Position numbers and translations under genes: made by a program. The notes beneath the pieces were generated by a model, which did no database searches, was not told where the DNA came from, and saw only the letters and a program-made list of their open reading frames with translations. DNA of 64,000 nt, from NCBI GenBank assembly GCA_963740085.1, contig CAVUCU010000004.1, forward strand, positions 96,001 through 160,000, in the 5' to 3' direction. Shown one piece after another: positions 16,225 to 30,823 of the stretch. The DNA comes from Nitrospirota bacterium. GTDB lineage: Bacteria; Nitrospirota; UBA9217. The first letter of the stretch is position 1, and each line of letters opens with the position of its first letter.

Positions 16225-17070
16225 ATGCGGCGTATATTAATTAGGGGAAGTTTCTGGTTCTGGATGCTGGTCCTTCTCGCGTTACAGACGGGATGCACCT
16301 ACATGTTTTTTAAACCGTCAAAAGAATTTGTCATGAGTTCCGAAGTCCTCAGGTATTCACCCCAGGATGTCTATTTCAAGTCTTCTGACGGGGTGACCCT
16401 CCACGGATGGTATTTCAGGGCCAAGGAGGAGCACGGCACCATCCTCATCTGCCACGGCAATGTGGAAAACCTCAGCACTCATGTAAAGCTCGACCTGTGG
16501 CTGATCGACGCGGGCTATAATCTCTTCATCTTCGATTACCGCGGGTACGGAAGGTCGGAGGGGTCGCCGGATGTTCAGGGGATCAATCGGGATGCCGAGG
16601 CGGCGCTCGAAACACTTCTTTTTACACTGCCGCGCACGAAAGACGGCAGGATCATCGTCTTCGGGAAAAGCCTCGGCGGCGCCGTGGCTGTGTACACGGT
16701 TGCGAATTCACCGTATAAGGACCGCGTGAAGGCGCTCATCCTGGACAGCGCATTCTCGAGTTATCGCGCCATAGCGCGGGAAAAGATCGCAGACTCCGTC
16801 ATCGGCTGGCCGTTTCAGTACCCGCTTTCCTGGCTGGTCGACGACGACTTCAGCCCGATAAGATATATCAAGAGGATCACGCCTGTGCCCCTCGTTATTA
16901 TCCAGGGGAAGGCCGATGATATCGTGCCCGAACATCATGGACGTATCCTGTACGATGCCGCCCTGTTGCCCAAGGAATTCTGGGAGCCGGCAGTCCCCGG
17001 TCATGTGAAGGCACAGGCTGATGAAGGCACGAGGAAAAAGCTGTTGGACTATCTCACCAGGCTGCCATAA
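16225..17070 (+). CDS. Alpha/beta hydrolase, probable lipoprotein
   Basis: QTG-C lipobox, CHGN, DYRGYG, GKSLGG nucleophile elbow, DDIVP, GH. Confidence 0.88.
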   Translation: MRRILIRGSFWFWMLVLLALQTGCTYMFFKPSKEFVMSSEVLRYSPQDVYFKSSDGVTLHGWYFRAKEEHGTILICHGNVENLSTHVKLDLWLIDAGYNLFIFDYRGYGRSEGSPDVQGINRDAEAALETLLFTLPRTKDGRIIVFGKSLGGAVAVYTVANSPYKDRVKALILDSAFSSYRAIAREKIADSVIGWPFQYPLSWLVDDDFSPIRYIKRITPVPLVIIQGKADDIVPEHHGRILYDAALLPKEFWEPAVPGHVKAQADEGTRKKLLDYLTRLP

Positions 17071-17162
17071 TAATCGAAGAAATCGAATACGTGTCAACGC
17101 AATTTAACTGCATCTGGGGTCTGCCGAGACGTGACAATCCCCACGCGCGGGGAAAAACTTCC

Positions 17163-17191
17163 TTGACAATCGCGGACTTTCACCTTATTAT
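17163..17191 (+). promoter_or_regulatory. Sigma70 promoter of tRNA-Leu
   Basis: TTGACA-17 nt-TATTAT, 9 nt upstream of the tRNA. Confidence 0.75.
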
Positions 17192-17200
17192 GTCAGCCGT

Positions 17201-17287
17201 GCCGAAGTGGTGGAACTGGTAGACGCGCTGCGTTCAGGGCGCAGTGGGAGCAATCCCGTGGGGGTTCGAGTCCCCCCTCCGGCACCA
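17201..17287 (+). tRNA. tRNA-Leu (anticodon CAG)
   Basis: GCCGAAG acceptor stem, D-loop GG, ctgcg-ttCAGgg-cgcag anticodon arm, long variable arm ggga-gcaa-tccc, GTTCGAGTC T-loop, encoded CCA. Confidence 0.97.
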
Positions 17288-17288
17288 T

Positions 17289-17468
17289 ATTTGACAAACA
17301 CGACTTTTGGGCTCAATTCCCGGAATGAGGTACTCAACTTCATGGGAACGCGGAAAGTCGAAAGAAATAGCAGCGTGCAACACCTTCTGCCCGTATTACC
17401 TCGATTTTGTCCAAGAAGGAACCTATTGCCTTTTTTTGTTCTCCCGGGTCTCGCTTCCTCAAAACCAT
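17289..17468 (-). pseudogene. C-terminal remnant of a putative integrase (large serine recombinase-like), copy 1
   Basis: Minus-strand translation MVLRKRDPGEQKKAIGSFLDKIEVIRAEGVARCYFF is 15/35 identical to the remnant at 20287-20625; the family assignment is inference. Confidence 0.6.
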
Positions 17469-17591
17469 TCCGATTTTTTATCAGATAACCTTACCGCTCG
17501 TATCCTTCGCAGGAAAAGGGGAGAGCAAGTCTTGTATGTGAGATATCCGGCATTCACAGACGTCTTGCATGAGGAAGGAACGTTAGGGCTG

Positions 17592-18242
17592 TTATCGTCT
17601 TATAGCAAGGCGTTGCCCCAGATCAAAGGCTTTCTGACAGTCAATTGGGAATATTTCCTTACGTCTCAAAGCCTTCTTCTCAGGGTCAAAATGCTCCATG
17701 ATGACCTTTGAATAGTCAGGAAACTGATACGTGTCATAGGAGCACAAGGTTTCGGCCTCGCCGAAGATCCTCTTTAAAGATGCTTCGGTGGCGCTCATCA
17801 TTGCTTGGTAGCCGATCTGCTTGCTCATTTCCTCGGGAACGTTCATCGTGTAGATCATCGCCGTCCGCAGTTTGCGCGGGAAGAGGGACCGTGAAGGCTG
17901 AGAATACACGAGAGGGGCAAAGAGAAGACGTTCCATGCATGATTTCAGCTCTCCGGACATGGACCCGAAGTATACCGGGGTTCCCAGCACCACTGCGTCG
18001 GCCTGGTCTTCGATCCGTTTTAAAACGGGGGTGAGCTCATCTTTCATGGCGCATTGCCCCTTGTTGGGCGAGTCGATCAATTTACACGCGAAACAACTTG
18101 TGCAGCCTTTGAAGGTGAGGTCATAGAGATGGATCAGTTCCGTTACCGCTCCGGCGGCCTGTGCCCCTTCAATGGTTTTTTCCAGCAGCGTTGCGGTATT
18201 CCAGCTCTTTCTCGGACTACCGTTGATGGCGATCAGTTTCAT
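17592..18242 (-). CDS. Flavodoxin-fold iron-sulfur flavoprotein / NADPH-dependent FMN reductase family
   Basis: INGSPRKSWNT, CTSCFAC..C, GTPVYFG. Confidence 0.9.
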   Translation of the reverse strand: MKLIAINGSPRKSWNTATLLEKTIEGAQAAGAVTELIHLYDLTFKGCTSCFACKLIDSPNKGQCAMKDELTPVLKRIEDQADAVVLGTPVYFGSMSGELKSCMERLLFAPLVYSQPSRSLFPRKLRTAMIYTMNVPEEMSKQIGYQAMMSATEASLKRIFGEAETLCSYDTYQFPDYSKVIMEHFDPEKKALRRKEIFPIDCQKAFDLGQRLAIRR

Positions 18243-18319
18243 GTTGGATCAGCTCCTTATAGTGAACGACAGCAATGCCTATTGCATGGTTCCAGTTAGT
18301 GACCGGATGGTTCTTGTTC

Positions 18320-19387
18320 TTATCGCAGGGTAATGGCTTTTTCAGGACACATCTCCTGGCAGCAAAAGCACGCAATGCAAATCTCACCATTCACCTGGGG
18401 GATATTTCCAACCATAGCTAAAGCTGATACCGGACAATGATCAACACAGGTGCCGCAGCTCGTACATTTCTCAGGGTCCGCCTGAGGGCGCAGGATCGCC
18501 CGTCCATGGATCATTGACTGCATGGCCTCATTGCGGAATAGTGCTTCTCCGCCCAACGGGGGCAGTTTGAAATCAGGCAGCGTTTTCAACTCTCCGACGA
18601 TTTCGATCGTCTTGAGATCGTAGTCGCCCAGGCCTGCCTCCTTCGCCTTCTGAAGGAATCGTAGTTTTCCCGGATCGCATCCCATCATGGTCGCAATAAC
18701 GGAGTCAACAGCAACCGCATTGTCCGACGCGAGGAGCATGCCGATGTTCCTGAGGTCAGGGGAGGCTGGGCCATTTCCTTCCATCCCGACTACGGCATCA
18801 ACGATGAATAAATCCGGTACCCGAAGCTTGAATACCTCTACAATCACTTCATTAAAATCCGCAGGGTTGCCTGCAGCCTTGTGCAGCATGGCTTTCTGTG
18901 CGCCAGGCAATAAACCGTAACTGTTCTTGATCGCTCCAGTCAGAACAGTCAGGCCATGGGTTTTAAATTTCGGCAGACTGATGACAATATCAGCGTCCAG
19001 TGCGTCTTGCGAGACGCTGACAAACGGCATATATTTGGGATTGAAAGCGACTTTCTGGGAATCATTCCCGATGTTTTTATAGTGGCCTTTGGCTGCTTCC
19101 ATCAATCCGGTTTTGGAAAAGCTCTCCTCATTCGCGCCGTAACTGAACAGGCCTGGATTATCTCCCACGATAAGAGAGGCGGGGCCCATTGTTTCCACCT
19201 TTTCAACAACAGCACGAAGAACAGCAGGATTGGTGACGATACCATCTTTTGTCTCCGAGCTTCGGAGAACGTTTGGTTTGATCAGGACTTTCTTTCCCGA
19301 TACTGTCAGGGGAAAGAGTTCAAATGCCCGGTCTACGGCTTGACGGACATTCCCATAACTGGCTGGCTGGATCATTACTTTTGACAT
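18320..19387 (-). CDS. DUF362-domain protein with C-terminal 2x[4Fe-4S] ferredoxin domain
   Basis: VLIKPN, LPKFKTH, GAIKN, MEGNGP; CTSCGTCVDHCP and CIACFCCQEMCP. Confidence 0.9.
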   Translation of the reverse strand: MSKVMIQPASYGNVRQAVDRAFELFPLTVSGKKVLIKPNVLRSSETKDGIVTNPAVLRAVVEKVETMGPASLIVGDNPGLFSYGANEESFSKTGLMEAAKGHYKNIGNDSQKVAFNPKYMPFVSVSQDALDADIVISLPKFKTHGLTVLTGAIKNSYGLLPGAQKAMLHKAAGNPADFNEVIVEVFKLRVPDLFIVDAVVGMEGNGPASPDLRNIGMLLASDNAVAVDSVIATMMGCDPGKLRFLQKAKEAGLGDYDLKTIEIVGELKTLPDFKLPPLGGEALFRNEAMQSMIHGRAILRPQADPEKCTSCGTCVDHCPVSALAMVGNIPQVNGEICIACFCCQEMCPEKAITLR

Positions 19388-19391
19388 GGTT

Positions 19392-19958
19392 TTACTCCTT
19401 TTTCGCGATTGAAAATGCCCTGCCTATACGCTCACCAATGCCATGGTAGGCGCCTTGCCCCGTATCAAAAACGAGCGGCTTGACCTTCAGGATATCAGCC
19501 ATTCCCTTCTCGCCGAGCACCGACTCTTCAGCCTTGATGTCCAGGATCTCTCCGATGAATTGCGTGTGAAGACCGATTTCCAGCGTGTGGATCACCTTGC
19601 ACTCTATTATCAAGGGAAATTCTTTTACGTACGGAGCGTCAACGAGGTCGCTTCGAACAGGGGTTAGCTTTGTCATTGCAAATTTATCGACATTTCGTCC
19701 GGAAGTCATTCCCACATAGTCCACCTCTTTCACCATCGCAACCGAAGGGATGTTAAGGGTATATGCTTTGCGTTCCTTGATGCTCCCGTATGTGTAGGTT
19801 TCCTTTCGCAGGGAAATAGTGACGCAGGGAGGTTGGGAGCAGCATATCCCGCCCCATGCAATAGTCATGATGTTTGGCTTGCCGTGCGAATCATAGCTTC
19901 CAACAACCCAGACAGGGGCTGGCTGTGCAAGTGTTTTGGCGCCGAGTGATTTTTTCAT
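19392..19958 (-). CDS. Flavin reductase / flavoredoxin family protein
   Basis: PNIMTIAWGG, SGRNVDKF, APYVKEFPLIIECK, HTQFIGEI. Confidence 0.9.
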   Translation of the reverse strand: MKKSLGAKTLAQPAPVWVVGSYDSHGKPNIMTIAWGGICCSQPPCVTISLRKETYTYGSIKERKAYTLNIPSVAMVKEVDYVGMTSGRNVDKFAMTKLTPVRSDLVDAPYVKEFPLIIECKVIHTLEIGLHTQFIGEILDIKAEESVLGEKGMADILKVKPLVFDTGQGAYHGIGERIGRAFSIAKKE

Positions 19959-20100
19959 AGTTGCCTCCTTAAAAAATGTCGTAAGAGACCGAAGATCGGC
20001 AATGCAGACCGGCTTATTCAGCGGAGAATACGCCGACTGTTATATATCATCATGAATATATTCCTGATCTCAGACGATGTCAATAATGTATAAAATGCAT

Positions 20101-20204
20101 TGACCAATCATTGGCAAAGGGAAATCCACGGTGATATATTGCACGCGTTGTTGCTGCCGTTGGGAAGCGTGTGCCTCAAGTGGGTGTCCCCCCTCCGGCA
20201 CCAT
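20101..20204. repeat. About 104-bp degenerate direct repeat ending in the tRNA-Leu 3' end (att arm, copy 1)
   Basis: Aligns throughout with 29847-29949. Confidence 0.9.
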
Positions 20205-20260
20205 TTTCTTTCATATATATTTTCGATTAATAAAATCTGTGGCCCTTCGCTCGGCACCAT

Positions 20261-20625
20261 CCTGAGGTGCACAACCTTTCAGGCACCTAGCCCAACCGGA
20301 ATGATATTGTCAATTTTCCTCGGCAGCTTATATCAACAAAGAAACAAAACCGTGCAACATCTTCCTCACGTATAACCTCAAACCTATCAGAGAAAACCCA
20401 GGTTAAGTCTTTTTGTTTGACGGCAGTCATTTCTTTAAGGATATCACCGGACATCTTTAAAGCTCGTGAATACTCGTTTACAGGAAGCAGAACTTTGTTT
20501 GGCTGACGTTTGATATTCTCATACCTTTCAATTTCTTCCTTTAGTTTTTCACGTGGTCCTGTGAATTTGCCGACCTGATTGCTAATGACAACGTTCAGGA
20601 CATCGTGGACAAAAATAATGTTCAC
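20261..20625 (-). pseudogene. C-terminal remnant of a putative integrase, copy 2
   Basis: Coiled-coil-like REKLKEEIERYE, then ILKEMTAVKQKDLTWVFSDRFEVIREEDVARFCFF; homologous to 17289-17468 and likewise pointing into an att copy. Confidence 0.6.
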
Positions 20626-20639
20626 GACAAGCAGGCACT

Positions 20640-20950
20640 TTATCGCAGTTGGTACTTGTATTCTTCGACCTGGATTGAATCCAGGAAGAGCTTCAGCTTT
20701 TGTTCTTTGGCGGAACCGAGAACATTTCGCCCCAGATGCTCATCCTGCAATCGCTTCGGATAAAACGAACGGGATTATAATAACCTCCACCGTCTTATCC
20801 AAGAAGTGTTTTGAAACATCATTCTTGCTCGGAAAGATCAATTTTATCTCCGACGCGGCCAGCGCCTTGAGCGGTGTGCTCCCCTTGAGCTTACTGCAGC
20901 GGTAGGCGCTGTTATGGTGGTGTTCAAAAGCCTGGGTTGATGCTGTGGCT
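20640..20950 (-). mobile_element. Frameshifted C-terminal fragment of a DDE (integrase-core) transposase
   Basis: Pieces in shifting frames: AFEHHHNSAYRCSKLKGSTPLKAL / VRFIRSDCRMSI / GEMFSVPP / KEQKLKLFLDSIQVEEYKYQLR*; recognised by resemblance only. Confidence 0.55.
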
Positions 20951-21144
20951 ATTCGATTCTTAGTACAGGGTGCGCTGCATGAATAGTTCTATCTCATACA
21001 TAGTTTGATTTATCCACCTCTCGATTATTGTATCAATTCTGTATTAATTAGGCCGCCGCAAGAATAACAAAGGATTGCAGTGCCATATTTTCTTTGCCGC
21101 AAAAAAACGGACGCCGCTGCCTGAAGAATTAGTATCCATACACA

Positions 21145-21188
21145 TATCAATAAGTTAACGGCTGCAATGCAATGGCATGGCGATTGCT
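21145..21188 (+). promoter_or_regulatory. Sigma54 promoter with upstream IHF site
   Basis: TGGCATGGCGATTGCT (GG-N10-GC) at 21173-21188; TATCAA-TAAG-TTA at 21145-21157 matches WATCAANNNNTTR; a sigma54 activator is encoded in the same island. Confidence 0.8.
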
Positions 21189-21243
21189 ATATCATCCACG
21201 AAGTTTGGCAACAACAATCATAACTACGGATCGGGGTGCAGCA

Positions 21244-23031
21244 ATGAAGGATAAATTAGAAGCAATACGCAATAACATTCACAGACACCACGGATGGAAG
21301 TGGTTCATACTTTCCACCGTTTTGCTGGGAGCCACCATGTCGGCCCTTGATGTAAGCATCGTAAACGTGGCTGTGCCGACGCTCAAGAACACCTTCGGGG
21401 TTTCGATGGCGGTCATCGAATGGATAACAATGGCGTATATGCTTACGCTGACCATATTCCTGCCGCTGTTCGGAAGGCTGGCCGATATGTTCGGCAGGTC
21501 GAAACTCTATAATATCGGATTTGTGGTGTTCTCTGTGGGTTCGCTGTTTTGCGGCATGTCGTCCACGGCGGGATTCATGATCGCAGCCAGAATCATCCAG
21601 GCCATCGGGGCCGGGCTTCTCCAGGCCAACTCCATTGCTCTTATTACCCAGGCATTTCCAACGAACGAGAGGGGCAAAGCTATCGGCATCCAGGCAGCAG
21701 TCCAGGCGATAGCGATGTCAGTCGGCCCTTTTGTGGGAGGCATACTGATCGCCACAGTAGGCTGGCGGGCGATCTTCTATATTAATATCCCCATCGGCAT
21801 ATTGGGGACCGTTGCCGCCCTGTTTATTCTTCCGCTTGACCAGAAAGTCGAAAAGAAGGAAAAGGTTGATTACCTTGGGGCAGCGCTGTTTGCCTCAGGA
21901 TTGGCATCTATCGTGCTCGCCTTCAACGAGGGAGTGAAGCTCGGTTGGGGCTCGCAAACCATCATGATGTATTTCGTGTCCGGCGCCGTGCTCCTGTCCC
22001 TTTTCATACTAACGGAGCTAAAGGTCGAGTTCCCGCTGATAGATCTTAAGCTTTTCAGGAACGCCACCTTTTTACTGGGGAACCTGACCGGTATGCTGTC
22101 CTATTATGTCCTGTTCGCGGTCATGTTCCTGATGCCCTTTTATCTCGAAAAAGCGCTTGGCTACAGTGTCGCTCTCACCGGCGCGCTGCTGACACCCCTT
22201 CTTCTTGCGATGGCGGTAGTGGCCCCATTCTCAGGCCAAATCTCGGATAAATACGGTTCGAGGATAATGACAACTTCCGGCATGATTCTTTCCGCCCTGG
22301 CATGTTTCTCACTTGTCTTCATGGGAGTGTCCGTGCAGCTGCCCCTGCTGGTATCTGTGTTAATACTCCTCGGGGCTGGCATGGGGATGTTTATTACTCC
22401 GAACAACAGCGTCGTCATAGGGGCCGCCCCTCAGGAGAAACTGGGAGTGGCCGGAGGCGTCCTGAACATGATGCGGTCCCTTGGGCTTATCTTCGGGGTG
22501 ACCATATCAGGCGTTATATTCACTACCCTGCAGCACAAGTACCTGTCCGATAATGGGTATCCAAATGTTCAACGTGTATTCAGCAACGCCAGTATTCCGG
22601 TGTCTGTTAAAGCCAGCGCATTTATGCACGGGTTTGTGATGGTAGTTATGGTCCTTATGGCAGTTACAATTTTTTCGGCATTCCTTTCATTTATCAGAAA
22701 AGTCAAAACAATTGACATCATAGATCATGAAGCAGCGAGAACCGCTGTCGTTTCATCAGGATTTTTTAATGGCTTTGGACAGGAAAGCAGGGGGATTGCT
22801 TTATTTATAATGCTCCTGCTGTTTATCGGGGTCACCAGTGCTTTTGCTTCGTCTCGATTGAGCGGCGGTAGCGTTACAACTACGAATGCAGTGCACAGCG
22901 TACCTGCGAAGTCTGATGTCGGGAAGAACGGCGAACCTGTAAAACAAAACATCAAACAAGGCGTTGCTGCAGCCGGGCATGGCACCGGTATGCGTGACTG
23001 GGCCTTTGATCTTTTAATCAACGTCAATTAA
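21244..23031 (+). CDS. DHA2-family (14-TM) MFS efflux transporter with C-terminal extension
   Basis: LDVSIVNVA, GRLADMFGR, ERGKAIG, GPFVGG, WRAIFYINIPIG. Confidence 0.92.
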   Translation: MKDKLEAIRNNIHRHHGWKWFILSTVLLGATMSALDVSIVNVAVPTLKNTFGVSMAVIEWITMAYMLTLTIFLPLFGRLADMFGRSKLYNIGFVVFSVGSLFCGMSSTAGFMIAARIIQAIGAGLLQANSIALITQAFPTNERGKAIGIQAAVQAIAMSVGPFVGGILIATVGWRAIFYINIPIGILGTVAALFILPLDQKVEKKEKVDYLGAALFASGLASIVLAFNEGVKLGWGSQTIMMYFVSGAVLLSLFILTELKVEFPLIDLKLFRNATFLLGNLTGMLSYYVLFAVMFLMPFYLEKALGYSVALTGALLTPLLLAMAVVAPFSGQISDKYGSRIMTTSGMILSALACFSLVFMGVSVQLPLLVSVLILLGAGMGMFITPNNSVVIGAAPQEKLGVAGGVLNMMRSLGLIFGVTISGVIFTTLQHKYLSDNGYPNVQRVFSNASIPVSVKASAFMHGFVMVVMVLMAVTIFSAFLSFIRKVKTIDIIDHEAARTAVVSSGFFNGFGQESRGIALFIMLLLFIGVTSAFASSRLSGGSVTTTNAVHSVPAKSDVGKNGEPVKQNIKQGVAAAGHGTGMRDWAFDLLINVN

Positions 23032-23262
23032 GGAAATGGGATCTTGTAGGTCCCTAACATAAAATTTATATGAGGAGGTAATTTAACAATGAGCAGATGG
23101 CCTTTTCCTTGTCCGTCCTTTAGCTTCTCGCGCGAGCCATAAATGGCTTGTCCTTGTGTCCGTGTTCTTAAGTGCAACCAAGTCGGCCCTGGGTGTGAAC
23201 ATTGCAAATCGGTAATGCCGAGTGTTTGTTGAGTCACTATATTATTTTATGGAGGTTGTGTT

Positions 23263-24033
23263 ATGTTAGCAAGCTGGCTGTTTTTACTGAGCTGTAGCTT
23301 AAGCGGTTCTTTTTTATCCAGTCTGTTGGGAATAGGGGGCGCCATATTCATTATTCCTGTAATTATGTTTTTTCAAAAGAATGTACATTTGAATATGGGG
23401 ATACATCAGATAAGCGCCCTTTCCACGCTTTTCGTCTTTGTGGCGGGGAGCATCGGTTTTTGGGCGCATGGCCGGCACATGAAGATAGAAAAGCGGTTGA
23501 TCCTCATAACCGGCATTTGTGCTTCCCTCGGGGCGCTGGCAGGTGGGACGGTGCAATTCTATCTGCCGCATAATGTGATTATGACAACATTCGTTACGCT
23601 ATTGTTTCTTATCAGTTTTTTGATGCTTTGGCCCCTTAAGGTTGAGTATACTGAGATGCCCGAATATTCAATAACTAAAACGGCTATTGGTTGTTTGACA
23701 GGAGGTTTTCTGGCAGGCACGGTGGGCATAGGAGGAGGCACGATACTGGTGCCCTTTATGATCGTTTTTCTTAAGATTCCTACCAAGGCGGCCATTGCTA
23801 CCGGCTTGGCTCTGGTAATGCTGGCAGGCCTTTTTGGCTTGGTCGGCCGGATGGGCCATGCTTCCTCTGTGCCCTGGATTTTAGGCATACCTCTCTTAAT
23901 CGGCATACTGCCGGGCAGCTTGCTCGGAACCTATACCAATCGGCGGGTGCCCGCAGCCGTTCTGCGCAAGGGCTTTGCCCTGCTGATTCTGGCGCTGGCT
24001 ATTCAGCAGGTCGCAACTATTTTCATGGCATAA
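23263..24033 (+). CDS. TauE/SafE (TSUP) family permease
   Basis: Two LLGIGGA/TVGIGGG..VP repeats, 8 TM segments, RBS ggagg. Confidence 0.88.
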   Translation: MLASWLFLLSCSLSGSFLSSLLGIGGAIFIIPVIMFFQKNVHLNMGIHQISALSTLFVFVAGSIGFWAHGRHMKIEKRLILITGICASLGALAGGTVQFYLPHNVIMTTFVTLLFLISFLMLWPLKVEYTEMPEYSITKTAIGCLTGGFLAGTVGIGGGTILVPFMIVFLKIPTKAAIATGLALVMLAGLFGLVGRMGHASSVPWILGIPLLIGILPGSLLGTYTNRRVPAAVLRKGFALLILALAIQQVATIFMA

Positions 24034-24046
24034 ATTCGTAGGTATC

Positions 24047-24152
24047 GAGCCTCTTGCGGAAGTCCCGTTCATGATTCGACAGACTCTCCACGAACGGAAA
24101 GATCCTTGCGTATTCAGTGCACCGCCGCCGCATGGACTTTTGCAAGAGGCTC
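24047..24152. mobile_element. MITE-like element with an internal REP-like hairpin
   Basis: 19-bp terminal inverted repeats gagcctcttgcggaagtcc / ggacttttgcaagaggctc; internal ccgttc..ttcgaca..gaacgg. Confidence 0.7.
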
Positions 24153-24187
24153 AACGTTTTATAATTCCTCAGGAGCTCTTTGCATAA

Positions 24188-25801
24188 ATGTTAACGAACA
24201 GAAGGACTGCGACAAAACCTAAAAGGATAAAAAAAATACTGGAGCATTGGCATGATTTTCGCCTGAAGCTTATTTTTGAAGGTATTTTAACCGGGGCGTT
24301 TGCCGGCCTGGTCGTGGTTTGTTTTAGACTTATGCTGGGTTGGACCGGCAAGGAACTGCCCAAGGTGTTTGCCTTTCTGAGGTCGAATGCCTTTAGCTGG
24401 ACCGCATTATGGTTTGTTTCCCTTATTATCAGCGGCTTGATTTTGGCCTGGTTGATTAAGGTCGTGCCGATGTCTACCGGCAGTGGCATCCCGCAGGTGA
24501 AAGGCATTCTGTCGGGATTTTGGCGATTTGACTGGCTTAAAGTAATCGGGGCAAAGTTTATCGGGGGTCTATTGGCAATTGGGGCGGGCCTTTCCCTGGG
24601 CCGGGAAGGCCCTTCGGTGCAATTGGGCGCGGCGGCGGGTCAGGGGATCAGCCGGCTTTTGAGACGCACCAGTATGGAGGAAAAATATTTACTCACCAGC
24701 GGGTCAAGCGCCGGGCTGTCCGCAGCCTTTAATGCCCCGCTGGCCGGGGTAATGTTCGCCCTGGAGGAACTGCATAAAAACTTTTCTCCGGTGGTGCTGG
24801 CTTCTGCCGTGGCTTCCTCGGTTACAGCGGTTTTTGTCACGCGCGAAGTTTTCGGGCAAAGTTCGGTGTTTGACTTTCACAATATTCCCGTGTTGCCCTT
24901 TCATTATTACTTGTATGTCGTGGTCCTGGGCCTTTTAGTCGGGGCTTTTGGGGTATATTTCAACTCGAGCCTGGTCAGATTTCAGGTTTTTTACGAGAAA
25001 CTGCCCTTGGTGCCACAAAAATTAAAACCGGCCATTCCTTTGATAGCGGCCGGATTCCTGGGATTTGTCCTGCCCCAGGCACTGGGCGGCGGAGACGACT
25101 TGATTAATTCGTTGCCGCAGATGCACTACACGCTCTCCCTGCTCCTGGTCATTATTGCGGTCAAATTTTACTTTACCATGTTGAGCTACGGTTCGGGCGT
25201 CCCGGGCGGCATCTTTATGCCCCTCTTGGCCATCGGCGCTTTAAGCGGCAATGTGTACGGCAGTCTTGCCGCCCAATATCTCCATGTTGAGCCCATGTAT
25301 GTCAACAACTTCATCATCCTGGCCATGGCCGCATACTTCAGCGCCATTGTCAAGGCGCCCATTACCGGCAGCGTCTTGATCATGGAAATGACCGGTAACA
25401 TGGAGCAGCTTTTACCTTTAATTACCGTTTGCATGTCCGCCTATATTGCCAGTGATTTATTTAACGGCAAGCCTGTTTATGATGTTTTGTTGAACCGGAT
25501 TCTGGCTAAACACAGGACAGCTTATAAACCGAGCCCTCAGGAACATGATGAGGAAAAACATATCCTGGAAAAAGTGGTCAGTTTGGGGGCACCGGCTTGT
25601 GACAAAAAAATATGCGATATTGATTGGCCGGAGAACAGTCTTTTGGTGGGTATCAGGCGGGGGGATGCCGAATTGATCCCGGCGCATGACACGATTATTT
25701 ATCCCGGGGATTATCTGATAGTGATGTCCGGGACAGCGGTATTCTCCAATGTGCACTCCTGTATCGAGGAACTGACCGGTGGAGAGAAGGTCTGTCTATG
25801 A
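24188..25801 (+). CDS. clcA: ClC-family H+/Cl- exchanger with C-terminal TrkA-C domain
   Basis: GSGIP, GREGP, FNAPLAG, LEE and GGIFMP motifs; gating and proton glutamates present. Confidence 0.92.
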   Translation: MLTNRRTATKPKRIKKILEHWHDFRLKLIFEGILTGAFAGLVVVCFRLMLGWTGKELPKVFAFLRSNAFSWTALWFVSLIISGLILAWLIKVVPMSTGSGIPQVKGILSGFWRFDWLKVIGAKFIGGLLAIGAGLSLGREGPSVQLGAAAGQGISRLLRRTSMEEKYLLTSGSSAGLSAAFNAPLAGVMFALEELHKNFSPVVLASAVASSVTAVFVTREVFGQSSVFDFHNIPVLPFHYYLYVVVLGLLVGAFGVYFNSSLVRFQVFYEKLPLVPQKLKPAIPLIAAGFLGFVLPQALGGGDDLINSLPQMHYTLSLLLVIIAVKFYFTMLSYGSGVPGGIFMPLLAIGALSGNVYGSLAAQYLHVEPMYVNNFIILAMAAYFSAIVKAPITGSVLIMEMTGNMEQLLPLITVCMSAYIASDLFNGKPVYDVLLNRILAKHRTAYKPSPQEHDEEKHILEKVVSLGAPACDKKICDIDWPENSLLVGIRRGDAELIPAHDTIIYPGDYLIVMSGTAVFSNVHSCIEELTGGEKVCL

Positions 25802-25929
25802 ATTGTTGCACAACCCCTATCCTTCCACCCCCATCCCTTTAGCGGTGGGGTTGGAAGCGTGTTTTAAATAACAATTTGCGGATATACAGTAAATAATGAA
25901 TTTTGTAGAAGGTAACACGAAAGACGAAG

Positions 25930-26454
25930 ATGTCTGAAACAATCGTACGCGACATAATGATAGCTATTGACAGCTATAGCACCGTGCGTTATGACGCAAA
26001 CCTGGAGGAAGCGGTAAAAGTACTTCATAAATCTTTTTACCAGGACGACAACGGAATTACATACGGACACAGGTCCGTTTTAGTGATCGACAAGGCCGGG
26101 GAATTGACAGGCATACTCACCATCCGGAGCATGTTAAAGGCGATGGACAAGGAATTGCCGGTTCTAGGTTCGGCTCTTGGCGGTCTCCTCAGTGAGCTTA
26201 CCCCGTTGCATGGGATGCTGGCTCGCATACCGGTACGGGAGGCCATGATTCCGGTTGCAAAGGCGGCGGTGAAGGAAGATGAAACCACCGGCCACGTCAT
26301 CCATGAGCTACTTAAAAGTGAGGCCGGCATTTTGCCGGTGCTCAGCGCGGGCAAAGTCGTGGGCATATTAAGAGCCATTGATTTTTTACAAAGTGTCGGC
26401 GATATATTGAGCGAAAAACAAAGAGTAATCCTCAGCTTTTTAACAGTCTCATAG
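25930..26454 (+). CDS. CBS-domain pair protein
   Basis: VRDIM..SVLVIDKAGELTGILT..VREAM..LPVLSAGKVVGIL. Confidence 0.88.
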   Translation: MSETIVRDIMIAIDSYSTVRYDANLEEAVKVLHKSFYQDDNGITYGHRSVLVIDKAGELTGILTIRSMLKAMDKELPVLGSALGGLLSELTPLHGMLARIPVREAMIPVAKAAVKEDETTGHVIHELLKSEAGILPVLSAGKVVGILRAIDFLQSVGDILSEKQRVILSFLTVS

Positions 26455-26725
26455 TAGTATTTATAGATTCTTCTCCCGCGTTCGTGCCACAGATTCCAAA
26501 GACTCCCCATCGCGCCTCGCTCTCCTCTCTGATTGCCTCATGGCATTCAGATTACAGCCGAAAAAAGGCGGCGTCAACTTCTCCCAGCATATATGTCATT
26601 GACCCTCTGTGAAAAGAAGATTGCCGTGACAGCCCTCTTAGGGTTATAATGAAAAAGTTTGTTGGATTAAGTAGTATCCATTCAGAACAGTTTTCGCGCA
26701 ATCTTCAGCAGACACAGAGGACAAC

Positions 26726-28333
26726 TTGGGCGTAATAAAGCAGGGCGGATCATCGCTTACGACAAAGTTTATGCTTGGATTAGGCATAATACTGCTGTGT
26801 GTTATTGCCATTCTTTCCTTGATTACCTATGATTATCTGAAAAAAATGTTCATCAATGAGGCCTATGAGAAGACAGACATTGTGCTGGGCCATATTGATG
26901 CTACGATGGAATATGCACGGGATGAGCTCCGTCCCCAGATATTTCATGCCCTGCCCGGGAATGTCTTCATCAAGCAGGTCATGTCCAGCACCTTTATTAA
27001 CATGGGAATCATGAAGAGGTTTAAACAGAGATTTCCCAGCTACATTTACAAAAGAGCCGCCATCGATCCCATGAATCCTGCGAACAAAGCCGATGCCTTT
27101 GAAGAAAAATTTATCAAACAATTCCAGAATGACCCGGCTTCGAAGAAACAGTGGAGGGGCCTGGTTTCCAGAAATGGCGAGGATTACTTTCTCCATGTTA
27201 AAGCTGTTGTTGCTGAAGAAGAGTGCCTGCTCTGTCACGGAGATCCCGCTTTATCACCGGAGTCCATTACCCGGCATTACGGAACGATGCATGGACGCCA
27301 CTGGAAAGTAGGTCATGTAATTGGCCTGGAGTCGATCGCAGCGCCGGTGAGCGGCACATTGCGCCAGTTGCGAAACGCTACGTTTTTCTTTTTCCTTATC
27401 CGCGTCGCCGTCATCGGGCTTTTTTTTGTAACGATGACTTATTTCCATTACCGCATGGCGGTCATGCCCCTGAGACGGGTGAGCTCTTTTTTCAAAGATG
27501 TGGTGAACCGGCACCGGGGTCTTGATATTCATTTGGACGCGCAGGACTATGGTGAAGTCAACGAACTGACCGAATCCTTTAACTGGATGATGGTGCATTT
27601 GAAAAAATCCGAAGAGGAAAGAAAAGAGATGGAGGAACGGGTGCTGCAAGCCGACAAACTAGCCTCCATAGGCCGGCTTGGCGCAGGTGTGGCCCACGAG
27701 ATCAACAATCCGCTCAGCCTGATCCTAGGCTATACAAATATGCTGCGCAAGGAATGTCCGGACGCGGGGCAGGCAAGAGCAGACCTTGATATTGTTTACA
27801 ACAACGCACGATTGTGTAAAAAGATCGTTGAAGACCTGCTCTATTTTTCAAGACAGACCAAAACAGATCTTGTCCCTACCGATATTAACGCTGCTGTCGA
27901 GTCGGCGCTGGTTCCGATGGAAGAAACATTGCGTGCCGGAGGGGTTACAGTCATCCGCGATTATGCTCCTGCGCTGCCTCCTTTGGCGGCAGACGAGGAC
28001 AAACTAAAACGGATTTTCACGAACTTTCTGCTCAACGCTTTTCAGGCAATGCAGCCCGGAGGACGTCTTACCGTCACGACCTCTTATGACAGAGAGAGAA
28101 ACGGCGTGAGGATCGTTTTTTCAGACACGGGCTGCGGTATTCCTGAGGAAATCCGGGATAAGATATTCGAGCCTTTCTTTACTACAAAACCGCCGGGAGA
28201 GGGAACAGGACTGGGGCTTGCGGTAAGCTACGGGATCGTGAAGGAGCACAAAGGGGAACTTTCGGTCATGAGCGAAAAAGGGAAGGGTTCATCTTTTACG
28301 CTTTGGTTTCCTCTTGCGGGTGACCACGTATGA
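26726..28333 (+). CDS. Sensor histidine kinase with periplasmic heme-c (DUF3365-like) domain and HAMP
   Basis: [47 protein letters not shown]. Confidence 0.92.
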
Positions 28334-29736
28334 AACAGACGATTCTTATTGTTGACGACAATCCGGATATGACCCGCTTGCTTGAGAGGCTCATCGGAAA
28401 TACGCTGCATCTGGAAACCCTATCCGCGGGCAGCGCAGCGGCGGCTCTGCGGATTCTCCAGGAGAAAACCATCAACTGCCTGCTTGTTGACATGAAGATG
28501 CCGGGCATGGACGGCATGGAGCTCATGCGGCGCATCAAGGAAAAGGACGCTTCCCTCCCCGTGATAATAATGACGGCCTATGGCGCCATCGAAACGGCCG
28601 TGGCCGCTATGAAAGAGGGGGCCTATGACTTCGTCACCAAGCCGTTCGAGGAGGAGCGGTTATTGCATACGGTGCGGAGGGCGATGGAGCATGAGAATCT
28701 CCTCCGGAGGAACCTGGACCTTGAAAGAAGGATCAGGGAGAAAGAACGGGAGACTTTCTTTGTCGGTGAGTCACCCCGGATGAAACAACTAATCGATACA
28801 ATTAAGCTGGTGGCCGGGACCGACGTGACCGTACTTATCACGGGCGAAACGGGGACCGGCAAGGAACTGGCGGCACGCATGATCCACAATCTTAGCAACA
28901 GGACCGGTAAACCTTTTGTGGCGGTCAACTGTCCGGCAATCCCTGAAACCATCTTAGAAAGCGAACTTTTCGGTTATCGCAAAGGTGCATTTACCGGTGC
29001 CAACTCTGACCGGGAAGGGCTTTTTCAGGCGGCACAGGGTGGGACCTTGCTCCTGGACGAGATAGGCGACATATCCTCCTCTTTGCAGGCAAAGCTCCTG
29101 AGGGTGCTGCAGGAAAGAGAACTGAAGCCATTAGGCGATACCATAACCCGGAGGGTGGATGTAAGGGTCATCGCCGCCACAAACAGGGACCTGCAGGGTA
29201 ATGTTGCCGCGGGGCTTTTCAGGTCCGACCTTTACTACCGGCTTAATGTCGTTTCGGTCAAGACGCCGCCACTCAGGGACATACCGGAAGATATACCACT
29301 CATCGCCTACCACTTTCTATCCCTGTTTTGCAGCGAGCTTGGATTGGGCCAAAAGAGGTTGACGGAAGAAGCAATACAGTTTCTTGTTTCCAGCCAGTGG
29401 AAAGGCAATGCCCGGGAACTTCAGAACGAGATAAAACGGGCGGTAATCTTTTCAAAAAGCGACCTGCTTGCGCCCGGGGATTTCGGTTCCCGCGTGGAAC
29501 TGATCACTTCGCGAAATGACGCCAATGAGACCGACAACCTCGATTACCGGGAGGCAAAGAAAAAGGTACTCGCTGCATTTAATAGTAACTATATTTCAAA
29601 CCTGCTGCGCCGCACAGGGGGAAATGTTTCCTCAGCCGCTCAGTCTGCGGGGATAGAACGCCAATCGCTCCAGCACCTTATGAGGAAGTATGGCATAGCC
29701 TCCGCCCAGTTTAGAAAAGATGAAGAAAATAAATAA
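28330..29736 (+). CDS. Sigma54-dependent response regulator (NtrC family)
   Basis: Receiver domain (DD, DMKMP), GETGTGKE, GAFTGA, DEIGD, Fis-type HTH. Confidence 0.96.
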   Translation: MKQTILIVDDNPDMTRLLERLIGNTLHLETLSAGSAAAALRILQEKTINCLLVDMKMPGMDGMELMRRIKEKDASLPVIIMTAYGAIETAVAAMKEGAYDFVTKPFEEERLLHTVRRAMEHENLLRRNLDLERRIREKERETFFVGESPRMKQLIDTIKLVAGTDVTVLITGETGTGKELAARMIHNLSNRTGKPFVAVNCPAIPETILESELFGYRKGAFTGANSDREGLFQAAQGGTLLLDEIGDISSSLQAKLLRVLQERELKPLGDTITRRVDVRVIAATNRDLQGNVAAGLFRSDLYYRLNVVSVKTPPLRDIPEDIPLIAYHFLSLFCSELGLGQKRLTEEAIQFLVSSQWKGNARELQNEIKRAVIFSKSDLLAPGDFGSRVELITSRNDANETDNLDYREAKKKVLAAFNSNYISNLLRRTGGNVSSAAQSAGIERQSLQHLMRKYGIASAQFRKDEENK

Positions 29737-29846
29737 TGGCTTATTATTTTCCGCCTCCTTAAATGCTAAAAGGAGTTTGTTTTTTATTTAGACGCCATAT
29801 AATAGAAGATAATATATAAACATGACCACTTTTATGCGAAAGATCA

Positions 29847-29949
29847 TTAAGCAGTCGTTGACAATCGAAAGTCCACTATGATATAGTGCACCCGTTGTTG
29901 TCGCTGAGAAGCGTGTACCTCAAGTGGGGTGTCCTTCCTCCGGCACCAT
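29847..29949. repeat. Att arm copy 2, ending in the tRNA-Leu 3' end
   Basis: Homologous to 20101-20204; contains TTGACA-18 nt-TATAGT facing bamD. Confidence 0.9.
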
Positions 29950-29961
29950 GTGGTAAACAGC

Positions 29962-30085
29962 AAATTCCAAATTACGAATCCCGAATAAATTCCAATTATC
30001 AAATTTCAATGACCCGGAGTCAGAAATTTGGTCTTTGATTCTTCTCTGAGCTTATTGGCGATTTGGTGCTCGTTATCTGGAATTT
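29962..30085. repeat. Inverted 7-nt period array without cargo gene
   Basis: aaattcc aaattac gaatccc gaat..aaatttc aatgacc versus atttggtgctcgttatctggaattt. Confidence 0.75.
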
Positions 30086-30094
30086 CCCCATCGT

Positions 30095-30823
30095 ATGAAA
30101 AAAATACTCATCATAGTGCTCCTTGCCCTTCTCGCCGGGTGCGCGACAAAAGAACCACCCTTCAACGCGGTGGCCGTATTCAAGGCAGCCGAAGAGAACA
30201 TGCGCACGCAATCGTTCGAAAAGGCGCGCAAGGGGTACCAGCAGATCCAGGAACGGTCTCCGGACAAGAGCTATGACGCTGACCTGATGCTTCGTGTCGC
30301 GGACACCTACTACGGCGAGGAGAAATACAGCGAGGCGCTGGTCGAGTACCAGGCCTTCCTGAACTACCATCCCGTGCACAAGGACGCGCCGTACGCCCAG
30401 TACCAGATCGCGATGTGCAACTACCAGGACCTCTCCACCATTGACCGTGACCCCGCGCCCGCCCATGCCGTGATCAGAGAGATGCGAAAGCTCATGGAAA
30501 AATATCCGCACAGCGGCTACGAAGAGCAGGCGAGAAAATATATTGCCATCTGCACGGACTGGATCGCGGAGTACGAACTTTACGTTGCGCATTTCTACTA
30601 CAAAAAGGGGTCCTACAAGGCGGCTGTGGGAAGGTGCGAGAACCTTTTGAAGGAATACCCGGGCTCGAGCTCGGAGAAGGACGCGCTCTATTATGCGGGT
30701 CTTTCGTATCAGGAACTTGGCGAGAAGGACCTGGCGCGCGCCAGGTTCGAGACACTCGCGCAGAAATATCCGGCCATGAAGACAACGGCGCTGTCCCACA
30801 TCCAACACCTGCACCTGCAATGA
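30095..30823 (+). CDS. bamD: Outer membrane protein assembly factor BamD
   Basis: LAG-C lipobox, TPRs, FLNYHP..APYAQY, IDRDP, AEYELYVAHFYYKKG. Confidence 0.9.
   Translation: MKKILIIVLLALLAGCATKEPPFNAVAVFKAAEENMRTQSFEKARKGYQQIQERSPDKSYDADLMLRVADTYYGEEKYSEALVEYQAFLNYHPVHKDAPYAQYQIAMCNYQDLSTIDRDPAPAHAVIREMRKLMEKYPHSGYEEQARKYIAICTDWIAEYELYVAHFYYKKGSYKAAVGRCENLLKEYPGSSSEKDALYYAGLSYQELGEKDLARARFETLAQKYPAMKTTALSHIQHLHLQ

Follow-up and report, generated by a model that had tools for sequence, protein, structure and literature searches.

The closest described counterpart of the locus presented here is the serine integrase DsiB of the Dehalococcoides ssrA islands, a protein of about 540 residues that is encoded on the reverse strand and adjoins the left attachment site, attL (McMurdie et al., 2011; PMC3146451). 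According to this report, the DsiB gene always overlaps attL at its 3' end and meets a stop codon only beyond the island. The overlapping part was described there as divergent and probably non-functional, and it was suggested in 2011 that the gene is perhaps fully functional only on the circular element (PMC3146451). The idea of tail exchange in serine recombinases is thus already known, as raised for DsiB. In this study, we analysed a stretch of 64,000 nucleotides (nt) from a Nitrospirota bacterium of the GTDB lineage UBA9217 (assembly GCA_963740085.1, contig CAVUCU010000004.1, positions 96,001 to 160,000 of the forward strand), hereafter the window, to which all positions refer. It contains two tandem islands behind a transfer RNA (tRNA) gene, tRNA-Leu(CAG), with the remains of large serine recombinase (LSR) genes. 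We propose that the recombinase gene of this family would read across the attachment site of the free element, attP, and that integration would exchange its native C-terminal tail for residues encoded by the antisense strand of the tRNA gene. As in Dehalococcoides, the islands lie at the 3' end of a gene for a small stable RNA and form tandem arrays with repeated 3' fragments (PMC3146451). The target there is the transfer-messenger RNA gene and here a tRNA gene, the two families being compared by description, and in the DsiB system a module of six genes also includes DsiA, a small serine recombinase that accompanies DsiB (PMC3146451). Compared with DsiB as described, the present family has a conserved native tail, co-variation of the reading frames and an overlapping predicted outward promoter.

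Similar arrangements have been described for tyrosine recombinases. In the myxophage Mx8, attP lies inside the integrase gene and integration creates a recombinant 3' end, the integrated form IntX still being an integrase like IntP (PMC6070905). The recombinant gene gives an integrase of altered specificity, and this change in activity was reported from experiments (PMC6070905). Furthermore, the Mx8 enzyme is a tyrosine recombinase with another chemistry and large arm-type attachment (att) sites (PMC6070905). The SSV-type archaeal integrases likewise have an open reading frame (ORF) across attP and a tRNA gene as target (PMC4383910). They differ in being tyrosine recombinases. Moreover, an SSV-type integrase gene is split in two parts by integration and does not just lose a short tail. 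Mycobacteriophages of the cluster G type, with their integration-dependent immunity, have attP within an ORF, and integration alters the behaviour of the protein by removing a C-terminal peptide, namely a degradation tag of the repressor; the interrupted ORF in those phages is the repressor and not the integrase, which is of the tyrosine type (PMC3694055). The serine integrases of phiC31, Bxb1 and SPbeta share with the present family the Resolvase, Recombinase and zinc-ribbon domains, the last with a long coiled coil, and their att sites of about 40-50 base pairs (bp) with inverted half-sites resemble the one predicted here. As described, what determines their direction is the coiled coil together with a separate directionality factor rather than a tail. 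The Islander study of 2014 states that the Mx8 and SSV integrases extend across attP, and that no integrase of the serine family was known with a tRNA gene as its target (PMC4383910). A full-text literature search, with the large LSR surveys outside its scope, returned no later report of serine integrases at tRNA genes. The novelty of the present system lies in tRNA-Leu as the target, in a conserved native tail whose frames compensate and in the overlap with a predicted promoter.

The tRNA-Leu(CAG) gene (17201-17287, plus strand; ARAGORN; Rfam 43.1 bits) is the one ARAGORN match in the window and, according to a whole-genome tRNA search, the sole CAG copy among the 43 tRNAs that it detected in the assembly. 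The last 18-22 nt of the tRNA are repeated (17270-17291, 20186-20207 at 95% and 29931-29952 at 82%), and the 12-mer CCTCCGGCACCA is present in three copies in the window, whereas 100 shuffles gave 0.00 on average. These copies of the tRNA 3' end and the excess of the 12-mer are the signature of two tandem islands, island 1 (I1, 17288-20204) and island 2 (I2, 20205-29949), each ending in a copy of the tRNA 3' end. The first att core copy (attL, 17270-17287) is the 3' strand of the T stem and acceptor of the tRNA itself and the second (20186-20203) marks the I1/I2 junction, both being supported by the repeat search and the shuffles; the third (attR, 29931-29948) is the displaced tRNA 3' fragment and has the element-type TT at GTCC[TT]CC. 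The empty site, in which the tRNA is followed by the flank that begins after 29949 in the window and then by bamD, is found in four of the eight other genomes of the genus (G046, G047, G049 and G044), including the closest one, G046 (92% identity in bamD). Among the remaining four, a short scar in two copies is found in G048 and a spacer of 290 nt without a recognisable right end in G043; G045 and G050 have a right-end remnant before bamD, the tRNA being absent within the locus. An intact tRNA gene, a displaced 3' fragment and an empty site in relatives are thus all present, as is typical of genomic islands in tRNA genes.

Pfam found no recombinase domain in the 16 ORFs of this region. Both islands retain, at their left ends, pieces of a recombinase gene on the minus strand. 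In I1, the last piece of the pseudogene (17234-17395, ..EVEYLIPGIEPKSRVCQIWCRR) reads through the antisense tRNA and ends in GDSNPHGIAPTAP-stop, which corresponds to the tail of the integrated state; the same ending is found in G003 and in the protein P0011. An upstream piece (17340-17477, ..PGEQKKAIGSFLDKIEVIRAEGVARCYFF) lies in a different frame, and all further N-terminal sequence is missing, so that this pseudogene is reduced to about 45-80 codons with a frameshift. In I2, about the last 95 residues before the core region are retained (20287-20625, ..KLKEEIERYENIKRQPNKVLLPVNEY..EVIREEDVARF..); the frame stops at 20287 and the last 85 nt have decayed. The two remnants are homologous (17 of 42 residues identical, E-value 2e-7), close to the 15 of 35 given in an earlier, preliminary description of this stretch, which had also proposed a large serine recombinase with an exchangeable tail. 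Its statement that both remnants read straight into the att site did not hold, as is evident from the frameshift in the first and the early stop of the second. A comparison of the minus-strand frame 20287-20739 with 64 genomes of the order gave matches in 11 of the 63 genomes other than that of the window itself (12 of 64 with it). Four of these matches (G003, G035, G025 and G054; E-values 4e-22 to 2.5e-15) are the C-terminal part of long LSR ORFs. Identification of the remnants with a non-recombinase family, one way in which the proposal could have failed, is thereby contradicted, and an excisionase-type helix-turn-helix identity, considered as well, was ruled out by the same matches. The other seven matches cover query residues 5-40 and correspond to the 3' end of an insertion sequence (IS) transposase of the rve type with terminal repeats. 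This remnant of an rve/DDE-type IS (20626-20800, minus strand) abuts and truncates the I2 pseudogene, which indicates that the I2 recombinase gene was cut by an IS that has itself decayed since. Fragments at 20620-20988 gave no Pfam match, and their identity came from alignment with the relatives. Judged by these alignments, the remnants are LSR pseudogenes that occupy the same place relative to the tRNA as intact LSR genes do elsewhere, and both recombinase genes of the window are dead. As far as the sequences allow, the region is best described as two tandem islands that a Nitrospirota LSR family inserted where the T stem of tRNA-Leu(CAG) meets the acceptor and that have since become immobile.

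Of greater biological interest are the intact relatives of this family, which measure 575-630 residues overall, come from Nitrospirota metagenome-assembled genomes (MAGs) and, with one exception, adjoin tRNA-Leu genes. Among the four long ORFs, three are full-length (575-626 residues) and the copy in G003 lacks its N-terminus. The Resolvase domain (PF00239, E-values 4e-18 to 2e-19) is present in the three full-length proteins, together with the N-terminal motif YLRCSTDMQ, and Recombinase (PF07508) and Zn_ribbon_recom (PF13408) in all four; an AlphaFold2 model of P0010 has long helices at residues 352-447 (moderate confidence), in keeping with a coiled coil inserted in the zinc ribbon. These domains confirm the serine recombinase identity that had been proposed. 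In all four, a tRNA-Leu gene on the opposite strand overlaps the 3' end of the LSR ORF. Thus, the intact homologues called for by the preliminary description do exist at tRNA-Leu, and they do not stop before the att core, a finding that would have spoken against it; they read through the core into the antisense tRNA. This was seen in 9/9 family loci on genome contigs, whose titles are mostly those of Nitrospirota MAGs (a tenth locus, a 49%-identical partial match from another phylum with other tRNAs adjoining, was set aside), and in nine of ten metagenome loci that reach the 3' end (five more end before it and are outside the count). In addition, 13 of 15 database proteins of the family end in antisense-tRNA-type sequence. 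The target genes represent three tRNA-Leu isoacceptors (CAG, GAG and CAA), and the tRNA-encoded extension ranges from one residue, where the T loop supplies TGA (GGT-stop, GGI-stop), through about 26-60 residues in tRNA-Leu(CAG) to more than 100 in one case. Two frames of entry into the core were found. Most genes enter as ..DGAEGG, and G003, P0011, the locus L033 and the I1 remnant of the window enter as ..WCRR. A search of viral contigs for this LSR gave no match and so revealed neither a phage-borne nor a free form there, and phage and plasmid collections contained only distant LSRs with 23-30% identity.

The family also has a recognisable candidate att site. On the gene strand, the motif GTGTAYSTMAA ends two bases before TGGTGCC in all 17 distinct gene-to-core junctions; the decayed I2 junction lacks it. 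In I1 the corresponding P' half-site is GTGTTTGTCAAATA on the minus strand (17288-17301), at the same fixed distance from the core as in these 17 LSR junctions. The right ends carry its inverted partner, GTGTACCTCAAG, on the tRNA strand, which in the window is the P half-site at 29913-29924. Together, the inverted half-site motifs span about 50 bp centred on the core, the usual att size of serine integrases according to the phage serine-integrase literature. The centre falls at ..GTCCTTC/CTCCGG.. (slash), and this position agrees with the one informative mismatch, GTCC-TT-CC in the right ends against GTCC-CC-CC in the tRNA. From this we infer a crossover at the central CC of ..CCTTC/CTCCGG.., within CCTYCGGCACCA. 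The tail residues LEVH/LRYT and the pre-core residues RVC/CVPQ can be accounted for by this arrangement, because they are dictated by the putative binding sites.

The right ends of the islands (P arms), named W1 for island 1 and W2 for island 2, supply the sequence that would follow the core on a free element, and their tails were compared by codon alignment. The homology of the two right ends extends past the core (79% over about 98 nt, E-value 3e-17). A DNA search with the I2 right end detected homologues in nine of 400 other sampled genomes of the phylum, eight of them in the family of the window, which align over about 100 nt. W2 (29847-29948, minus strand) has an intact native-tail frame, WCRRKDTPLEVHASQRQQRVHYIIVDFRLSTTA-stop, with homologous tails in relatives, and is open without any alteration in the WCRR frame up to the stop. 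W1 (20070-20204, minus strand) has lost the usual tail stop, carries a mutated -35 box (TTGGCA) and has lost one base beside the core (GGGT against GGGGT in five other right ends); this loss puts its tail out of the WCRR frame and into the frame chosen in the preliminary description. There, the roles were reversed, and one C had been removed from copy 2 as if that copy were frameshifted. Both right-end peptides quoted there can be found, that of copy 1 in the minus frame 20070-20210 and that of copy 2 in frame 29847-30005 from ..PLEVHASQ.. onward. The six synonymous codon differences and the 3-nt gap between the copies are real as well; in addition, 14 codons differ non-synonymously, many of them in the frameshifted and far ends.

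The native tail comprises about 30 residues with a conserved motif YI(I/T)(V/I)DFxL. More broadly, the tails share [QKEH]-[YFH]-I-x-[IV]-[DN]-F-x-L, mostly followed by four residues and a stop, and the stop lies four residues past the L of the motif in W2, L033, L034, L039, P0010, P0016 and P0024. G035 alone combines an intact gene with both island ends on a single contig. The LSR of this genome reads into the core as GAEG, and the right end of the same island, at a distance of 61 kb, continues in exactly that frame through QYIIVDFKLST up to the stop. In G003, where the LSR reads into the core as WCRR, the right end at 6.7 kb distance likewise stays open in the WCRR frame, passing QYITIDFKLST before it stops. 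The in-silico reconstruction of attP proposed in the preliminary description therefore gives a continuous ORF in both genomes. Natural continuous ORFs exist too. In L033, a tandem junction in G036, an ORF runs from an LSR remnant through WCRR into the tail, and on L044, the metagenome contig that encodes P0010, a homologous tail completes a full-length gene, which is followed by a terminator hairpin; a tRNA is absent. An exhaustive profile search that started from the C-terminal 150 residues of P0010 listed 21 proteins, and the 15 of these that were examined included two further natural tail-carrying fragments, P0016 and P0024. Thus, the tail is continuous with the LSR in four natural ORFs (L033, P0010, P0016 and P0024) and in two attP readings (G035 and G003). 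Since the right-end frames continue the LSR frame as a conserved tail, integration is expected to swap the tail, as had been proposed. The proposal was right in outline and wrong in frame.

The same DNA carries a promoter-like element on the opposite strand. A consensus scan of the 13-kb region ranked three plus-strand sites at the top, which are the promoter-like site of the tRNA-Leu gene (17163-17191, TTGACA-17-TATTAT, 11/12 consensus matches), the site in the I2 right end (29858-29887, TTGACA-18-TATAGT with TG, 11/12), which points outward to bamD, and that in the I1 right end (20111-20140, TTGGCA-18-TATATT with TG, 10/12). TTGACA is kept in nine of 12 aligned right ends. bamD (30095-30823, plus strand; Pfam) encodes a lipoprotein of the bamD/YfiO family and is the host gene directly after the tRNA in empty sites, where it starts about 20 nt (G047), 50 nt (G044) or 130 nt (G046, G049) behind it. 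In G047 at least, there is no room for a separate bamD promoter. It follows from these distances that an insertion cuts bamD off from the tRNA promoter; the short gap suggests that this essential outer-membrane assembly gene is co-transcribed with the tRNA. G050 has kept nothing of the att site except the right-end promoter, now joined to bamD about 12 nt before its start. G045 has the promoter some 110 nt ahead of bamD, and the G048 scar, with the tRNA adjacent once more, has lost it by deletion. From this pattern it can be inferred that the island carries a replacement promoter for bamD. Such a role would also explain why W2 is well kept and the internal W1 decays; probably, the W2 tail is intact because its predicted promoter is still needed.

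The following model can be drawn from these observations. The final 45 or so codons of the recombinase gene would contain an attP of about 50 bp, with inverted GTGTAYSTMAA half-sites around a core that is identical to the tRNA 3' end. On the free, circular element, the gene would read across attP and end in the native tail of about 30 residues with its YI(I/T)(V/I)DFxL motif. Integration would cut the gene in the core. The P' side would stay with the gene and rebuild the tRNA, and the tail-coding P side would move to the far end of the island. The integrated gene would then read into the antisense tRNA and stop one to more than 100 codons later. On the opposite strand of the tail DNA, a near-consensus sigma-70 promoter with an extended -10 would point out toward bamD after integration. 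The sequences compared show directly the geometry, the gene family with its frames, the empty site and the conserved promoter motif. We regard the explanation as a whole, with islands, an LSR gene that spans attP, a tail swap and a promoter for bamD, as likely.

Several observations weigh against this explanation or against a function of the tail within it. The window has no intact recombinase, and the evidence for an intact system comes entirely from relatives. The continuity of the ORF on the free element is read from frames alone, and in L044 the core and the P half-site are poorly conserved, so that it may not be a working attP. W2 and three relatives differ by synonymous and non-synonymous changes in ratios of 4:6, 2:9 and 6:12, a modest coding signature, and over the 12 codons around the motif six, six and seven columns vary at the three codon positions. 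The DNA-level functions of att half-site and promoter explain part of the tail conservation. In AlphaFold2 models of P0010 (14 sequences) and P0016 (11 sequences), the tail is left unmodelled (predicted local distance difference test score, pLDDT, below 30-50); the strands modelled last (..RIEV..ARCYFY..IDYILP) stop about 10 residues short of the core, a result that says little about the tail given such shallow alignments. Finally, intact-looking integrated LSRs have tails of one to more than 100 residues, which fits a dispensable tail and argues that no particular integrated tail is selected. Several of these points also speak for a rival reading with the same geometry in which the tail is non-functional. 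The gene would merely abut attP and be translated in run-on fashion, the swap would be a neutral by-product, and the right ends would be kept only for the recombinase-binding half-site and the bamD promoter. In keeping with this, the codons over the -10 and -35 boxes are invariant at all positions, even synonymous ones, and G050 keeps the promoter alone, fused to bamD. However, YIxIDFxL is retained in the natural ORFs P0010, P0016 and P0024, in which the DNA has diverged and TTGACA is gone, and the WCRR and GAEG lineages, one base apart, each have the motif in their own frame at the right end. The position of the stop is conserved, and more distant LSRs (P0028 and P0031) also end in a hydrophobic, strand-like stretch. 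Moreover, the variation at three codons of the promoter spacer follows the codon structure (GTG/GTA/ATC/ATT, GAC/GAT and TTT/TTC, a third-position wobble of V/I-D-F); invariant boxes with a wobbling spacer are the look expected under joint constraint on protein and DNA. The argument for coding is therefore moderate where it rests on the substitution pattern and good where it rests on the frames; the matched frames, the survival of the motif, the stop and the ends of the distant LSRs are its stronger points. On balance, we lean towards the native tail being a selected part of the protein and consider a purely neutral swap rather unlikely, though a serious alternative.

Two further readings have much less in their favour. 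The right ends might be non-coding relics of a captured tRNA-Leu gene, consisting of its promoter and a deleted tRNA body, with frames that are open by chance. They do have a consensus promoter, followed by a stretch ending in GTGGGG-T-GTCC..CGGCACCA that resembles a loop-deleted T arm with the acceptor end, and the -35 region TTGACAATCG is common to the right ends and the tRNA promoter of the window. Neither right end gives a tRNA or an Rfam match (Rfam, with E-values up to 0.1 over 16900-30300, returned the tRNA alone, and the right ends matched no described RNA family). The inverted half-site, which the P' arm has as well, accounts for the sequence beside the core, and the continuity with the LSR frame in four natural ORFs and two lineages would be unexpected from a relic, which makes this origin very improbable. 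Taken literally, the preliminary description had the gene enter the core in the frame MVPEGG, gave the integrated tail as MVPEGGLEPPRDCSHCALNAARLPVPPLRHG and assumed a one-base insertion in copy 2. Its two peptides are readable from the sequence, but the intact relatives all enter as GAEG or WCRR and none as MVPEGG, a frame that meets a TGA within nine codons in the right ends W2, L033, L034, L035, L038, L039 and L041, and copy 2 is open unaltered in the WCRR frame. For the tail beginning MVPEGGLEPP, the remnant frame of the window (17234-17395) gives WCRRGDSNPHGIAPTAP-stop instead, as in G003. In this literal form, the reading is refuted and has next to no chance of being correct.

Returning to the tail swap by a gene that spans attP, it is tempting to speculate on its meaning. 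Loss of the native tail may change the activity or stability of the recombinase and so mark the integrated state, by analogy with IntP and IntX of Mx8; this remains speculative, and we would sooner bet against it. As the integrated tails are so variable, what matters, if anything, would be the loss of the native end. The integration-dependent immunity of the mycobacteriophages offers the best model for a tail swap that signals the integrated state, by analogy. More doubtful still is a reading of the tail as a state sensor, in which only the circle would make the full-length YIIVDFxL form, and the chromosomal form would differ in stability or site pairing. If true, it would amount to a built-in control of direction, as the preliminary description had suggested for the tail exchange, encoded in DNA topology, beside or instead of a directionality factor, and the same 100 bp would also act, when read from the opposite strand, as a substitute promoter for an essential gene of the host. 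Serine integrases are valued tools of genome engineering because they are simple and directional, and their direction is attributed to the coiled coil and a separate factor. A family that is rewritten by its own reaction would offer a different layer of control. Furthermore, the overlap of a protein tail, a putative recombinase-binding site and a predicted outward promoter in about 100 bp would be a compact example of an island paying for its insertion before an essential gene.

The window itself is modest in comparison, with two fossil islands that carry metabolic and transport cargo. Pfam assigned the I1 cargo (17592-19958, minus strand) to FMN reductase-like, DUF362/4Fe-4S and flavin reductase-like genes. 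Just inside the I1 right end, a promoter-like site on the minus strand (20055-20083, TTGACA-17-TATATT, 11/12) faces this three-gene flavoprotein operon, which runs from 19958 to 17592. The I2 cargo (21172-29736, plus strand; Pfam) comprises an MFS transporter, a TauE protein, a CLC channel, a CBS protein, a histidine kinase and a sigma-54 response regulator. As for the IS remnant at 20626-20800, the transposase ends in ..IQVEEYKYQLR-stop in relatives, followed by a 10-bp palindrome and GTCCACGATGTC repeats, and intact transposase copies of about 400 residues are present in G019, G051 and G032. In G003 (locus L003, 2563-3219), the LSR gene is cut at its 5' end beside an ORF of 218 residues that by eye resembles a DDE transposase; if it is one, this would be a second case of an IS disabling this recombinase. 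In the acceptor stem of the tRNA-Leu(CAG), A5 and C68 are mismatched (5' GCCGAAG against 3' CTCCGGC); most relatives have CTTCGGC, and CTCCGG is also found in the G046 empty site and in G048. No tRNA-Leu(GAG) was found among the 43 tRNAs of the assembly. The island of the intact recombinase in G035 (61 kb; contig C22, 33.3-92.6 kb, L059-L061) is without phage structural genes and is equipped with defence and competition genes, namely an MksE/DUF3584 (Wadjet-like) set, an Eco57I-type restriction-modification enzyme and RHS-repeat proteins with spare C-terminal cassettes. It also encodes a beta-helix surface protein of 3084 residues, a primase-like protein and three tyrosine recombinases. Another small fossil island is seen in the MAG locus L029. 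Its first 60 nt hold a second att core and, behind it, sequence resembling a right end; the distance to the tRNA is just about 3.7 kb, and a decayed recombinase gene lies alongside. Reading into the tRNA may be common in the wider recombinase group, as the ends of P0020, P0023 and P0034, remoter recombinases of this clade (35-44% identical in the C-terminal part), with sequences such as ..VGAGGRNRTD.. and ..EVGVEPT-stop, resemble other antisense tRNA 3' ends.

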